Position numbers and translations under genes: made by a program. Shown here in pieces: positions 2,138 to 16,060 of a stretch of 64,000 bases of DNA; the stretch's first letter is position 1; every line of letters starts with the position of its first letter. Below the pieces are notes generated by a model. It worked only from the letters and a program-made list of their open reading frames with translations. It was not told the DNA's origin and did not search any database. Origin of the DNA: a virus; the IMG/VR virus record IMGVR_UViG_3300034069_000432, positions 9,219 through 73,218 of that record; one strand, written 5' to 3'.

Positions 2138-2916
2138 TGACCAGAAAACGAATTTTGCCCCCCGATCGCCTCGCTGAATGCAAGGCAGCCCACGAACTGT
2201 TCCTGTCGAAAAAGAAGGAGTTGGGGCTGAGCCAGAAGAAAATTGCAGACGCCGCCGGTATAACGCCGGCCGCCGTGAACCTCTACTTCAAGGGGATCAA
2301 TCCCCTCAACGCGCAATTTGCCGCCATACTGTCCGAACAAATAAAGGAGCCTGTGGAGCGATTCAGTGCGCGCCTGGCTGCCGAAATAGGAAAGCTGACG
2401 CGTGCAACCCCAGACCGCGCCGCTGTTGCTTCGAACGCCGAGCTGCTTGGGCCAATTGATCTCTGGGATGACGACACGCCGCTCGATGACGATGAGGTGT
2501 ATGTGCCATTTCTAAAGGAAGTAGAGCTCTCGGCTGGCAAGGGACGCACCGCCGTAGAGCAGTCTCATAAACAGAAGTTGAGGTTCGGCAAGCTGACACT
2601 TCGCAAGCAAGGTGTTCAGCCGTCAGACGCTGTGTGCGTCACGGTGAGCGGGAATAGCATGGAGCCGGTATTGCCTGATGGCAGTACGGTAGGGGTAGAT
2701 CAGGGCACCACATCAATCACGGACGGTAAGATGTATGCCATCGACCACGGCGGGCAGCTTCGCGTGAAGACGCTATATCGTCTCCCAGGAGGAGGAATGC
2801 GGATGCGCAGCTTCAATCGAGATGAGCACCCCGACGAGGAATACTCAGCCATCGAGATGATCGAGATGGAAATCATTGTTCTGGGCCGGGTGTTCTGGTC
2901 TTCAGCTCTCTGGTAA
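2137..2916 (+). CDS. cI: CI repressor (XRE HTH + S24 peptidase)
   Basis: LSQKKIADAAGITPAAVNLYFKG HTH; VSGNSMEP and RVKTL Ser/Lys dyad. Confidence 0.95.
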   Translation: MTRKRILPPDRLAECKAAHELFLSKKKELGLSQKKIADAAGITPAAVNLYFKGINPLNAQFAAILSEQIKEPVERFSARLAAEIGKLTRATPDRAAVASNAELLGPIDLWDDDTPLDDDEVYVPFLKEVELSAGKGRTAVEQSHKQKLRFGKLTLRKQGVQPSDAVCVTVSGNSMEPVLPDGSTVGVDQGTTSITDGKMYAIDHGGQLRVKTLYRLPGGGMRMRSFNRDEHPDEEYSAIEMIEMEIIVLGRVFWSSALW

Positions 2917-2945
2917 AGCCCCGCGCGCCACGCGCTCAATAAAGG

Positions 2946-2972
2946 ATCCCGCCACGCGAGCGGGATTTTTTT
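2946..2972 (+). terminator. Intrinsic terminator after cI
   Basis: ATCCCGC-7nt-GCGGGAT-TTTTTT. Confidence 0.85.
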
Positions 2973-2990
2973 CGCCCACAGAAAAATAAT

Positions 2991-3031
2991 TAACCATCGG
3001 TGTTGACTTGGCAATAAACCGATGGTTAACT
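2991..3031 (+). promoter_or_regulatory. P_L promoter with two O_L operators
   Basis: TAACCATCGGTGT 2991-3003 and AAACCGATGGTTA 3016-3028; TTGACT-17-TTAACT (weak -10). Confidence 0.75.
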
Positions 3032-3079
3032 ACACCCATCGAAACGAATCAGCCCCTACCAAGGGCCTCCGGATCGAAC

Positions 3080-3088
3080 CGCTCTTTA
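3080..3088 (+). promoter_or_regulatory. boxA-like antitermination element
   Basis: CGCTCTTTA about 45 nt downstream of P_L, matches lambdoid/rrn boxA. Confidence 0.55.
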
Positions 3089-3351
3089 TCACCGCCAAGA
3101 TCCGCCCGAGGGAATCCCGGTTAGCCGGTACAAATGGGCGCAAAACATTCCCTCCCGAGCTGCGACGCGATGCGCAGTCACTGAAGCCCATGCATTCAGT
3201 GCGAACCAGGTGAGCACCTTCGAAGCGCCAGTAGCGCATAGAGGGCATCGGCAATGAGGGCCGAGTGCAGAAAGCCTGGGGAGAAACAGACTTCCTCGAT
3301 GACCTTGGCGACAGGGTCATCCGGAAAATCAACCTACGGAGAGACCCCGAA

Positions 3352-3483
3352 ATGACCACCAACAGAGTGCAGTGCCGCGATCAGGCCGAAGTGACCGAAG
3401 TCGCCGAGATGTGCACCGCTACCGGCTACCTCTACAGCGTCGATGAGCAACTGATGCTCACCTTCTGGAAAGCCCAACAGTAA
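3352..3483 (+). CDS. Small hypothetical protein (43 aa)
   Basis: MTTNRVQCRD..., GGAGAG RBS. Confidence 0.55.
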   Translation: MTTNRVQCRDQAEVTEVAEMCTATGYLYSVDEQLMLTFWKAQQ

Positions 3484-3500
3484 CCACCTGGAGAAGCGCC

Positions 3501-3581
3501 ATGAGCCAGAAACAAGAACCAGTATTCGTCGGCTACACCGAAGACGGCATGGCGATCTACCGGCTGCCGTTTCAGCTGTGA
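3501..3581 (+). CDS. Very small hypothetical protein (26 aa)
   Basis: MSQKQEPVFVGYTEDGMAIYRLPFQL, GGAG RBS; not in ORF track. Confidence 0.5.
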   Translation: MSQKQEPVFVGYTEDGMAIYRLPFQL

Positions 3582-3651
3582 ACCAAGCCGAACGATTTCT
3601 GAAACGCCTGGGCGACCGGGCGTTTTGGAAACAGAACGGGAGACACCGGAA

Positions 3652-3855
3652 ATGCTGGACAAGAAAGACATTCCCCGCTTCCGCGCCGAAGCAAAGATGT
3701 TCAGGGCTCATGCCAAAGCAGCCCGAGCCGACCTCGCGAAGTGCAAAGCCGCGGGCGATTGGGTCGGCAAGCTGAAAGCTGAGTGCCGGGTAAACGAATA
3801 CGTCCGCGACGCTCAGGCGAGGGACAGATGGATCAAGGAAATTCAGTCAACTTGA
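3652..3855 (+). CDS. Hypothetical protein
   Basis: MLDKKDIPRFRAEAK..., GGAG RBS. Confidence 0.65.
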   Translation: MLDKKDIPRFRAEAKMFRAHAKAARADLAKCKAAGDWVGKLKAECRVNEYVRDAQARDRWIKEIQST

Positions 3856-3868
3856 AAGGAGAGATGTG

Positions 3869-3958
3869 ATGACACCAGAAGAAATAGCCCAGGCGCTGGC
3901 CGAGTGGGAAGCACACCAACAACGTAAGGCTGAAGTCGCGAAACGCGCAAGGAAGTGA
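3869..3958 (+). CDS. Very small hypothetical protein (29 aa)
   Basis: MTPEEIAQALAEWEAHQQRKAEVAKRARK, AAGGAG RBS. Confidence 0.55.
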   Translation: MTPEEIAQALAEWEAHQQRKAEVAKRARK

Positions 3959-3959
3959 A

Positions 3960-4058
3960 ATGCCAACCCTCCCCTCACCCCCACAAGCATGGGGACTGCT
4001 GACAGCAATACTTTCGCTGCACGCCCTCGCGCTGGGGCTGATGGTGGCTTGGTCTTGA
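3960..4058 (+). CDS. Small hydrophobic peptide (32 aa, one predicted TM helix)
   Basis: MPTLPSPPQAWGLLTAILSLHALALGLMVAWS, starts 1 nt after previous stop. Confidence 0.4.
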   Translation: MPTLPSPPQAWGLLTAILSLHALALGLMVAWS

Positions 4059-4067
4059 AGTTGCGCC

Positions 4068-4707
4068 GGCCTTTGCGAAAGGGCCTATCGGGAAGTGATC
4101 GGAGTACCGCCAGCCAGCGCGGGAGCAAAGGCAGACAAACGTCATGCCGATCACTTCACCGATGCAGGACGCTAACCCCGCACAAGCGGGCCACCTTGCA
4201 TCGAAATCGCCCGACCGAGGGAGCTCTTAAGTTGGGAGGAAATGGTGACGGCCGTGGAACTCGGCGCCGGATGACGTGACCGGTAACCCAAGGAAACCGT
4301 GGGCAACGGAACCAGCCAGAGCGTTACGAGGAAAATTTTTTACATCTTTATCCTCCCTCGGCCAGTTGAAACGACCATGTGGGTGCCGCCAATGCGGATA
4401 AGCCTGTGTGAATCGACGATCTGGTGCGTGATCTGGCCCGATCACCTTGCTGGAGCTTTTTAGCTGCGAAGGCGAGGCTGCATCGGAGTGTTAACTGAAT
4501 GGTTGCAGAGTAGGCCCCGGCCGAGAGTGCAATAAACCCTCACCAGTTAACACCCCGATGCAGAAGCGGCGTTGAAAGCTGGGTTGAACGCTTCGGCGGC
4601 CCTAGAGAAACGCAGGTTCGATAGGCGCCATCTTCGGATGGTTTGCCCCTCCGAGCGGTCGTCCCGAAAGGGTCCGCTCTATCCGGGTTCGCGTCCGGAC
4701 TTCTGCA
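4068..4707 (+). ncRNA. Candidate structured RNA region (chain of long stems, cUUCGg and GNRA tetraloops)
   Basis: 11+5 bp, 9 bp, 19/20 bp and 8 bp stems; two CUUCGG loops, GAAA and GCGA loops; no credible ORF. Confidence 0.6.
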
Positions 4708-4762
4708 CCCCATTCAACAGGTAGCCACTGCCTTTCCAGTGAGCAATCAATAGGAGATCGCG

Positions 4763-5020
4763 ATGAGTGCTAACGACGGCGGCAACGCCTTTCCAGTCGC
4801 CGACTACGACCATCAAACTATTCAGCCTAAAGACGGCAATGAGTGTAAGCGGCAGCTGTTAGGCATGAGTCTTCGAGATTACCTAGCCGCCAAGGCCGTT
4901 GCAGCCCTTGAAGCTCCTTGTGACTACGTAGGGCGTAGCGAGACACAAAGATCGTATCGCGAGTGGGCAGAAAAGGCTTATCGAATGGCCGACGCCATGC
5001 TGGCCGCCCGGAACGCTTAA
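4763..5020 (+). CDS. Conserved phage hypothetical protein (GMSLRDYxAA...AYxMADAMLAAR family)
   Basis: Family motif recognised; AGGAG RBS. Confidence 0.8.
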   Translation: MSANDGGNAFPVADYDHQTIQPKDGNECKRQLLGMSLRDYLAAKAVAALEAPCDYVGRSETQRSYREWAEKAYRMADAMLAARNA

Positions 5021-5145
5021 CACCCCGCCTACAACCACCCCTCCCGAACATATCGCACTGCCCATCCACCGCTGCCTATCTGGCCGATCGCGTTCTTGGC
5101 TTGGGCAGTGCCGTGTGTTTGGTTAATCAGCAAGGAGATTGAGCC

Positions 5146-5400
5146 ATGGCTGCTACAGCCGAGTATGCATGCCTTCGATGCAAGCAGCCTTTCATTGCCC
5201 GAACGGCTGACCGCAAGCGCGGCTGGGCTCGCTTCTGCTCAAAGTCATGCAAGGCCAGCAGGCAGGAGCAGCGGACCGGCCAGCACGCCTCCTATCAAGA
5301 ACGGCAGCAGCGCAGATCGGAGGGGCACGAGGGTGGCGAGTTCACTGATGCCCACCTGTTCAGCAATGAAGACCACGATTGCAGTAAATCACCGGATTAA
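5146..5400 (+). CDS. Small Cys-rich protein
   Basis: CLRC...FCSKSC; AGGAG RBS. Confidence 0.7.
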   Translation: MAATAEYACLRCKQPFIARTADRKRGWARFCSKSCKASRQEQRTGQHASYQERQQRRSEGHEGGEFTDAHLFSNEDHDCSKSPD

Positions 5401-5423
5401 AAAACCCGCCGACGGAGGCGACC

Positions 5424-5837
5424 ATGAATGCTTTAAGCGCAGCACAGTTCGAGTATGACAACCTCCTCCCGGTGGACATCTGCTCAAGCGCGGAACGGGT
5501 TTGGATCGACGACGCAGCGGAGCAGTTGCTGCTCGGCGCTGACGTGACGTTCAAGCGCGAATTCCAATCTCCCCAGGGCGTCACCTACGAACAGTTCGCC
5601 GCTGCGGTGGATGAGTTCGTGATGGGTCAGCTCTCGGCTTTCGGCATCAGCAACTCGGTATTGGGCCGACTGGTGCTGGCCGCCAAGCGCCGCGCATCGT
5701 CAGACGCCTGCACTGCGGCCTCTGAGGCCCTGAACAGTCCCAACCCTGACGAGGCGCTGCGCCAGATCGCCGTCACGCTGCTGACGCCGCTGGCTAAGGA
5801 TGCGCTGATAGCCCAGGCCGAGGATGAGGCGCTGTGA
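5424..5837 (+). CDS. Hypothetical phage protein
   Basis: GGAGG RBS, coupled to next gene. Confidence 0.75.
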   Translation: MNALSAAQFEYDNLLPVDICSSAERVWIDDAAEQLLLGADVTFKREFQSPQGVTYEQFAAAVDEFVMGQLSAFGISNSVLGRLVLAAKRRASSDACTAASEALNSPNPDEALRQIAVTLLTPLAKDALIAQAEDEAL

Positions 5838-6028
5838 GCCCTCACATCCACCTCGACGAAGAGCTGGAGACAATCGAGTCTCCTGCCTGCCCCGCCATGT
5901 ACGAAGTGATCGTCATGCGCAACATTACGCGACTGATGAGCGAAGGCCAGATCACCCCCGAAGAATTCACCCACTACTGCAAACGACTTTATGCCGCACT
6001 TGATCGTCGGCAAGGGAGAGCGGCATGA
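5834..6028 (+). CDS. Hypothetical protein
   Basis: GTGA overlap; MSQGQITPEEF-like motif. Confidence 0.65.
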   Translation: MSPHIHLDEELETIESPACPAMYEVIVMRNITRLMSEGQITPEEFTHYCKRLYAALDRRQGRAA

Positions 6029-10636: not shown

Positions 10637-10969
10637 ATGGGAATCGCATCGTCGGGCGTCGTCACCCTTCCCTCCTGGATGAGGTCAGTCAAGAAGCTCT
10701 ACAACACCCGCAGCGGCGGGCAGTACCGGCCGGAGGATGTTGCGCTGGTCTTCGCGCTGAGTCTGCGGACACATAACAGCGCTGACGAGCTGCGCAAGTT
10801 GGCCTGGCGGCTCGTGGACAAGGTCTGCCTTGAGCATCAGCCGAACATGAAGCGCCTGAGCCGCGAGCCGGATGACGCGAAGGTGTTCGACGCCGCTTTG
10901 CGCATCATCAATCGCGTTTGCTCGATGCTGAACTGCGGCGAAGGGTCATTTGAACGGAGTAATGAGTGA
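10637..10969 (+). CDS. Hypothetical phage protein
   Basis: AAGGAGG RBS before MGIASSG. Confidence 0.7.
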   Translation: MGIASSGVVTLPSWMRSVKKLYNTRSGGQYRPEDVALVFALSLRTHNSADELRKLAWRLVDKVCLEHQPNMKRLSREPDDAKVFDAALRIINRVCSMLNCGEGSFERSNE

Positions 10970-15989: not shown

Positions 15990-16060
15990 GCGGGTAAGTA
16001 CAGGGTATTAATCAGCCTTCCAAGCTGATGATTAGGGTTCGATTCCCTATATCCGCTCCA
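15990..16060 (+). tRNA. tRNA-Gly (anticodon TCC), shortened D-arm, encoded CCA
   Basis: Acceptor GCGGGTA/TATCCGC, anticodon arm TCAGC-CTTCCAA-GCTGA, T-arm TAGGG-TTCGATT-CCCTA, TCCA end. Confidence 0.8.

Follow-up and report, generated by a model that had tools for sequence, protein, structure and literature searches.

Predicted RNA modules form a mosaic array in the early-left operon of a lambda-like Pseudomonas phage

A gene-free stretch of about 0.7 kb (4059–4762, + strand) in a temperate phage of Pseudomonas is, as judged by comparison with related prophages, a mosaic of independent RNA modules that have been recombined differently among Pseudomonas prophages. All positions refer to the window, the whole 64,000-nt stretch of DNA that was analysed, which belongs to a 74.9-kb virus record of IMG/VR. 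The comparisons indicate conservation with compensatory changes for every module other than B, the outer helix of which carries one-sided changes only. We consider the chances about even that the array consists of early-transcript RNA cassettes on the + strand, from which host RNase III and RNase P would cut out stable small RNAs. An earlier note on the same DNA had read the stretch as a chain of RNA stems, a candidate ncRNA or switch array; what emerged instead is a row of modules that are independent of one another and have been shuffled by recombination.

Genomic setting

The phage is a lambda-like Pseudomonas temperate phage, and 4059–4762 lies inside its early-left (PL-type) operon, about 1 kb 3' of a PL-like promoter. 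This placement follows from the cI-like repressor, from the operators with a rightward promoter and from the recombination genes downstream. The repressor (HTH plus S24 peptidase) is encoded at 2137–2916 on the + strand. Its gene is flanked by four copies of the operator word TTAACCATCGGT in two clusters, one OR-like (2063–2101) and one OL-like (2990–3029); in the control for the operator count, seven matches were reached by 0 of 100 shuffles. The second cluster brackets the promoter, which is directed rightwards, into the array-bearing operon (Table 1).

Several smaller features lie between the repressor gene and the array. An intrinsic terminator (2946–2975, a GC stem followed by T7) directly 3' of the repressor gene divides it from the early operon. 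A boxA-like word, CGCTCTTTA, at 3082–3090, about 50 nt 3' of the PL-like promoter, may be a nutL-type site, although neither a boxB nor an N-like gene was identified. Two ORFs of 26 aa (3501–3581) and 29 aa (about 3869–3958) both have ribosome-binding sites, and a 32-aa hydrophobic ORF (3960–4058), likely a small membrane peptide, is located directly 5' of the RNA array. The word CATCGG is common to the TTAACCATCGGT operator and to the ends of the clamp hairpins described below, which is probably coincidental; the clamps are kept across phages with divergent repressors.

No plausible ORF was found between the end of the 32-aa ORF at about 4058 and the start of the 85-aa gene at 4763, so that the stretch is indeed ORF-free, as the earlier note had claimed. 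The genes 3' of the array follow on the + strand in the order 85-aa gene, Gam-like lead, Erf-like annealing protein, exonuclease and SSB. The 137-aa protein encoded at 5424–5837 (phrog_4801), for which a language-model look-alike search gave a weak lead to Gam/GamL (host nuclease inhibitor), is also present 3' of F in 19 of the 27 F-bearing loci. More than 15 loci share the leader of the 85-aa gene, which is outside the RNA array proper, at 80–90% identity; in some of them it is directly 3' of a clamp. The sole tRNA in the window is a tRNA-Gly (UCC) at 15990–16060, identified with ARAGORN.

Table 1. Positions of the RNA modules and of neighbouring features in the window
Feature	Position	Strand	Description
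OL/PL-like region	2990–3031	+	two inverted TTAACCATCGGT operator words around the promoter TTGACT-17-TTAACT
pre1 hairpin	4068–4085	+	GNRA hairpin (GCGA), immediately 5' of clamp H1
H1 (stem A) clamp	4087–4163	+	AUCGG...CCGAUG ends, 44-nt cargo
B	4157–4205	+	8-bp helix GAUGCAGG/CCUUGCAUC around the hairpin CCCGC-ACAA-GCGGG
spacer	4206–4247	+	taken together with X, about 83–87% identical to L226 and L147; no established structure
X	4248–4286	+	two small hairpins, GCCG-UGGAACU-CGGC and GCCGG-loop-CCGG
M3	4286–4437	+	about 150 nt, long-range closing helix, variable hairpin (GAGGA...UCCUC in the window)
pre2 hairpin	4445–4475	+	CCUUGC...GCGAGG, 5' of clamp H2
H2 (stem E) clamp	4478–4563	+	9 bp, A.C and 10 bp, 46-nt cargo
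F (F1 type)	4560–4710	+	151 nt, 7-bp closing stem GCAGAAG/CUUCUGC, four arms, ACC end
Leader of 85-aa gene	4705–4762	+	hairpin CACUG-CCUUUC-CAGUG, then GGAG; outside the RNA array proper

Modular organization of the array

Related loci, referred to here by L numbers, were fetched through the conserved downstream 417-aa gene, an F-specific word and a clamp word. In blastn comparisons the stretch broke into sharp-edged pieces, the order of which varies between phages. The piece 4087–4167(–4202) was found again in five loci (L111, L208, L095, L153 and L154) and the piece 4204–4286 in two (L226 and L147). X recurred in L183, L181, L157 and L182, where it immediately adjoins F, and M3 was found after B in L174, L099, L131 and phage Cruim01. 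F itself was found again in about 28 loci at 85–90% identity, and in L111 it is immediately adjoined by a clamp. Compared with phages such as that of L183, the window has a 273-nt insertion, comprising M3, pre2 and H2, exactly at the joint between X and F.

In two isolated phages of P. syringae the array forms an unannotated gap of 0.8–0.9 kb at the equivalent place: Cruim01 (L082, PP179333.1), at 2734–3650, and Medea1 (L083, MW862109.1), at 2671–3440. An exact 21-mer of stem E gave 0 matches in IMG/VR, and none of the 81 loci fetched via the 85-aa downstream gene had a blastn match to window positions 4000–4780 at E ≤ 0.01. The 74.9-kb record holds no second such locus, and none is present in the other early operon.

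Folding of a 661-nt stretch against 20 shuffles for each strand gave z-scores of −3.4 for the + strand and −4.2 for the − strand. These scores alone are weak evidence and leave the strand undecided; the decisive support is the covariation in the homologues of A/E, X, M3 and F. The compensatory changes found in these four sets agree with the earlier view that the RNA structure is selected and not due to chance.

Clamp hairpins and their cargo

The hairpins H1 and H2, first noticed as stems A and E, are members of one hairpin family, and the end motifs that they were said to have in common are real. Stem A (4087–4102/4147–4163) consists of 11 bp, a bulged A and 5 bp, and 19 of the 20 positions of stem E (4478–4497/4544–4563) are paired, the remaining one being A.C. 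The GNRA hairpin in front of H1 was also located where it had been described, with 7 bp and the loop GCGA as read from the sequence. In other phages a short hairpin of differing sequence likewise precedes the clamp, and phage Cruim01 has CCUGGC...GCCAGG at the position of pre2. The clamp-plus-swappable-cargo nature of A and E was absent from the earlier description, as was the tRNA shape of F.

Among the loci fetched, 68 distinct clamp copies with 39 distinct stems were collected. The ends of the family, (C/U)AUCGG...CCGAUG, are invariant and the interiors are swappable: at each of positions 7–17 at least three Watson-Crick pair types were observed, and the AUCGG/CCGAU ends never vary. Over positions 7–17 of the 39 stems, 92.5% were paired as compared to 59.6±2.3% after partner shuffling, a figure that is partly circular because the copies were chosen for pairing, so that the real evidence is the diversity of the pairing stems. 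On the sense strand, G.U outnumbered A.C by 30 to 5 with position 7 excluded, and action of the clamps on the − strand was rejected on this tally. At position 7, 15 of the 39 stems have A.C on the sense strand, where the opposite strand would give G.U. A single variant of the clamp stem was present in more than 120 IMG/VR contigs.

The cargo enclosed by the clamps is 28–228 nt long and wholly different between phages. The type carried by H1 occurs within other clamp stems in L111, L208, L095 and L332, and the type carried by H2 occurs in L268, within a different stem. The T-loop word GTTCRANNC was found in 8 of the 68 cargoes, some of which also have a D-arm-like word; the two cargoes of the window have no tRNA features. 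No direct repeats flanking H1 or H2 were found in the sequence.

In the clamps of three related loci (L092 at 2933–3025, L206 and L208) the cargo combines a D-arm-like word with a canonical GGTTCGAATCC T-arm and has no anticodon arm. Such cargo would amount to a tRNA-like domain on an 'acceptor' stem of about 20 bp.

The tRNA-shaped element F

The consensus fold of F was obtained from an independent MAFFT alignment of 28 homologues, and the element is predicted to be tRNA-shaped, yet not a tRNA. The closing helix that had been proposed is present and is drawn here as 4560–4566/4700–4706; the two cUUCGg loops (4592 and 4633) and the GAAA loop (4666) are likewise where they had been described. 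Arm 1 carries an invariant cUUCGg, arm 2 is a variable hairpin and arm 3 is GAAA-capped. In arm 4 a 5-bp stem carries an 8-nt loop; this arm is contiguous with the 3' strand of the closing stem in the manner of a tRNA T-arm. The result is a tRNA-like minihelix, in which a 7-bp stem is continuous with a 5-bp hairpin on the 3' strand and is followed by unpaired N-C-C; the 3' tail reads ACC, AUC or CCC in the homologues. A 7-nt UUCRANY T-loop was not found; the 8-nt loop of the window reads GUUCGCGU, and that of relatives AUUCGCGC, GAUCAGCU or GGUAGCGU. ARAGORN identified no tRNA in the array when run on the window, and none in 18 related loci. A pattern search of four Pseudomonas genomes for a host tRNA with the F closing stem gave non-tRNA matches only.

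Across the 28 homologues, 99% of the cells were paired and 12 of 42 pairs had changed on both sides. Shuffled controls gave 2.8±1.1 such pairs, with 0 of 500 at the observed value, and slid controls gave 0–3. One pair is U.G throughout and three more are G.U in most sequences; read from the opposite strand, these pairs would become A.C, which places the F RNA on the + strand. All 55 of the 55 indels in F are of 1 nt, and a conserved reading frame is thereby excluded.

A covariance model of F gave weak full-length matches in 11 more loci, on the same strand and in the same syntenic position. What these matches retain is limited to the closing stem (GCAGAWG/CWUCUGC), the beginning of arm 1 and the last arm, and a pattern scan found several body types of 103–200 nt on the constant F scaffold. 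About 50 nt in the core of F do not vary even between phages that differ in flanks and downstream genes, and F is thus not tied to one neighbouring gene. Of 151 Pseudomonas genomes, one per species, the model matched only 2, and F1 is accordingly rare and prophage-borne.

Modules B, X and M3

B comes after a clamp in most related loci, and its 5' strand has GAUG in common with the 3' arm of H1. The stem B seen earlier (4160–4166/4197–4203) is present within the longer 8-bp helix listed in Table 1. In 17 aligned copies the pairing of this outer helix is kept through one-sided G-C/G.U changes, with no two-sided changes. The counts cover the outer helix only, since MAFFT misaligned the inner hairpin, in which the sequence varies and the pairing persists as judged by eye.

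For X, two of nine pairs were compensatory in nine sequences, with C-G replaced by G-C in four sequences and by U-A in two. The homologues of M3 in L174, L099, L131 and L082 (Cruim01) are 82–89% identical and lie between B and a tRNA-shaped element; in five sequences, 4 of 41 pairs were compensatory.

Two stems of the earlier description did not hold. Stem C (4215–4223/4353–4361) is not conserved: its 5' partner is missing from M3 homologues that hold the 3' partner. The two arms belong to modules that are found apart in other phages, and the stem is therefore most likely fortuitous. In place of stem D, the consensus of five sequences pairs 4361–4365 with 4421–4425, together with a long-range pairing of about 4315–4324 with about 4426–4437.

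Overlapping arms

The 3' arm of a clamp and the closing stem that follows it have 4 nt in common, GAUG in the case of B and GCAG in the case of F, where the last 4 nt of H2 are the first 4 nt of the F closing stem. These two overlaps (A/B and E/F) recur in homologues and remain of the three that had been proposed, whereas the third (C/D) falls with stem C. The mutual exclusivity of the stems thus shrinks to two 4-nt overlaps at helix junctions.

Three patterns bear on the use of the shared bases. L216 has an altered GCAG for which the clamp base compensates fully, and the F stem retains only a wobble pair. In L111 and L208 the clamp base is complete and the third pair of F is broken. L213 lacks an upstream clamp, and there the outer pairs of F covary. 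Taken together, these patterns indicate that both pairings are under selection, in different contexts. For the sequence of the window, the extended clamp is favoured by 4.5 kcal/mol over the conformer with a closed F stem. No terminator or other switch read-out was found on the + strand at 3000–6000, and a regulated switch, one of the roles that the earlier note had thought possible, is for this reason not established.

Comparison with known RNAs

A cmscan of 3000–6000 against Rfam 15, the database comparison that the earlier note had proposed as a check, gave no match at E ≤ 1. With Rfam gathering thresholds, the whole window matched only tRNA-Gly, outside the array. F was unrecognised by the Rfam tRNA model RF00005, and the models of ROOL, GOLLD and group I and II introns had no match in the window. 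Five related loci, some of them with tRNA-like cargo, gave nothing relevant; the only match was to the RT-15 RNA in L130. This reverse-transcriptase-associated RNA matched strongly (187 bits) at 10641–10833 of that related prophage locus. In the literature searched, no description of these elements was found.

The closest likenesses are to RNAs that are cut from longer phage transcripts. Species 1 and 2 of phage T4 (rnaC and rnaD) are stable RNAs of about 120–140 nt with an acceptor/T-arm-like end, cut from a longer early transcript, and we know of no function for them. Compared by description, the array resembles them in being phage-encoded RNA with a tRNA-like acceptor/T-arm end. The T4 RNAs, however, sit among real tRNA genes, whereas the array has no tRNA nearby, the last arm of F is without the T-loop consensus, and F lies in the PL operon of a temperate phage.

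The stems cut by RNase III in rRNA precursors, the lambda N leader, sib and T7 early mRNA are about 20 bp long; they surround functional RNAs or lie between them, and cutting frees the enclosed RNA. The clamp helices, of about 20 bp within a polycistronic transcript, are similar. This length is reached by H2 (9 + 10 bp) and by the family stems, which pair over at least 17 positions, whereas H1, with a bulge, stops at 16 bp. On the strength of the stem length, the RNase III processing suggested in the earlier note stays plausible. The clamps differ in their invariant AUCGG/CCGAU ends and in the frequent A.C at position 7, which to our knowledge are not features of RNase III substrates.

C4 of P1/P7, processed by RNase P, and DicF of Qin, processed by RNase III and RNase E, are small RNAs cut from a prophage immunity or early-operon transcript, and both are Rfam families. 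They are single antisense regulators with known targets, in contrast to the swappable modules of the array, which have no Rfam match. The put RNA of HK022 consists of two stem-loops of about 70 nt near both PL and PR, and acts without a phage-encoded N protein. The array is likewise structured RNA in a lambdoid early transcript, but it is one modular locus of 0.7 kb about 1 kb from PL, and no counterpart was found in the other operon, so that the paired sites of put are lacking. An attenuator or riboswitch is not indicated either: no terminator-like site was found on the + strand at 3000–6000, and the same F stands before differing downstream sequences.

In related phages, clamps with T-loop-bearing cargo resemble the YrlA-type Y RNAs, in which a long stem formed by the ends is combined with a module that is tRNA-like; RNase P cuts some of these RNAs, which then have CCA added, and they occur in phages (Chen et al. 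2014, PMC4201824). Four differences were observed. The covariance model of YrlA (RF02553) had no match in the window or in five related loci, and no rsr gene (Ro60/TROVE, PF05731), the neighbour expected of a YrlA gene, was found in the 74.9-kb phage record, while the control genomes were positive. The motif GNCGAAN0-1G, which YrlA has close to its 5' end (PMC4201824), was absent from 4059–4762 in a regular-expression search, and the cargo in the window is not tRNA-like.

Processing and alternative explanations

According to the processing model, host RNase III would cut the clamp stems of about 20 bp, and RNase P together with 3' trimming enzymes would recognise the acceptor/T-arm-like 12-bp minihelix of F with its N-C-C. 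The polycistronic early RNA would in this way yield discrete stable small RNAs, namely cargo pieces and F, and the cutting would uncouple the message segments upstream and downstream. The helix that follows a clamp would close fully only once the clamp base opens or is cut, and cleavage of the clamp would free GCAG for the F stem. Recognition of F by RNase P is plausible at best, because the last arm is not a true T-arm and both ARAGORN and the Rfam tRNA model were negative. Points against processing are the 16 bp and bulge of H1, the A.C at position 7, the equally good folding of the − strand and the advantage of 4.5 kcal/mol of the clamp base.

X and F together are present in at least eight runs on record as RNA, and X and F of L157 are covered exactly by two contigs, 174 and 258 nt long, from soil metatranscriptomes, although such contigs carry no strand, level or true ends, and their ends may follow strain variation. 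When four RNA runs were compared with L157, two long contigs from a size-fractionated library spanned everything and two short metatranscriptome contigs spanned X and F. A search with the sequence of the window itself matched no RNA run among those listed.

A different role, which is compatible with processing and which we think possible though unlikely, is that of trans-acting decoys or host-takeover RNAs. The array would deliver small structured RNAs early in infection, namely the tRNA-shaped F and, in other phages, genuinely tRNA-like cargo, and these would bind or distract a host factor; a tRNA-directed defence nuclease and a tRNA-modifying or RNA-repair enzyme are candidates. This would fit with the swapping of cargo and tRNA-shaped body between phages on constant scaffolds, with the D-arm- and T-arm-like words in some cargo, and with an F core that stays invariant for about 50 nt despite differing flanks and downstream genes. 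It would also suit the early-left operon, in which lambdoid phages keep accessory and anti-host genes. The F closing stem, however, matched no tRNA in the four Pseudomonas genomes of the pattern search, and the cargo in the window, of 44 and 46 nt, lacks tRNA features. We are more doubtful still about the specific form of this idea, in which clamp and tRNA-shaped scaffold would serve as a recombination-swappable display of changing decoy RNAs, made as infection begins and released by RNase III and RNase P, in counter-defence or host takeover.

The array may instead act in cis as a leader, its overlapping helices forming a multi-state switch, a put-like processive antiterminator acting on RNA polymerase or a translation gate for the recombination genes, an explanation that we consider improbable. 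The 4-nt overlaps of the clamps with B and F do recur in homologues, the GCAG change in L216 is compensated in the clamp base with only a wobble in the F stem, the conformers are within 4.5 kcal/mol, and the placement in the early transcript resembles that of HK022 putL. Against this, no terminator-like site was found on the + strand at 3000–6000, and the array is located about 1 kb from the promoter, after several small ORFs. The 74.9-kb record has one such locus, with none in the other early operon, and the downstream gene varies among phages with the same F. Furthermore, the modules are gained and lost freely, which an integrated switch would not tolerate.

It is very unlikely that the inverted repeats work at the DNA level, as recombination linkers or MITE-like hairpins at mosaic joints with an accidental structure. 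The module borders do fall at conserved arms, an exonuclease and an annealing protein of the Erf type are among the phage's gene products, and the − strand folds as well as the + strand. Yet the strongly one-sided G.U pairs (30 versus 5 in the clamps) and the invariant U.G in F are unexpected for DNA cruciforms or repeats, the compensatory changes in F, X and M3 belong to complex folds of several helices and not to simple inverted repeats, the UUCG and GNRA loops are invariant, and H1 and H2 have no flanking direct repeats. We find it hardly credible that the stretch holds unannotated small protein genes or is a GC-rich spacer that folds by chance: ORFs of 41–96 aa can be drawn on both strands, but the candidates span the borders of separately mobile modules, the indels in F are all of 1 nt, the ORF at 3989–4279 has no PHROG or Pfam match, and the covariation is far above that of the controls.

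Implications

Phage-encoded structured, tRNA-like RNAs embedded in operon transcripts are a kind that is already known, here in a tandem two-clamp version with an F1-type body. Lambdoid early-left operons are treated as successions of small protein genes, and nothing is entered in their gene-free gaps. The gap described here holds at least four covariation-supported RNA families that are missing from Rfam. If these RNAs are released as stable species, the tRNA-shaped element and the clamps would provide new scaffolds for RNA structural work, and the array would represent a new layer of phage biology, in which RNA cargo is exchanged like gene cassettes.
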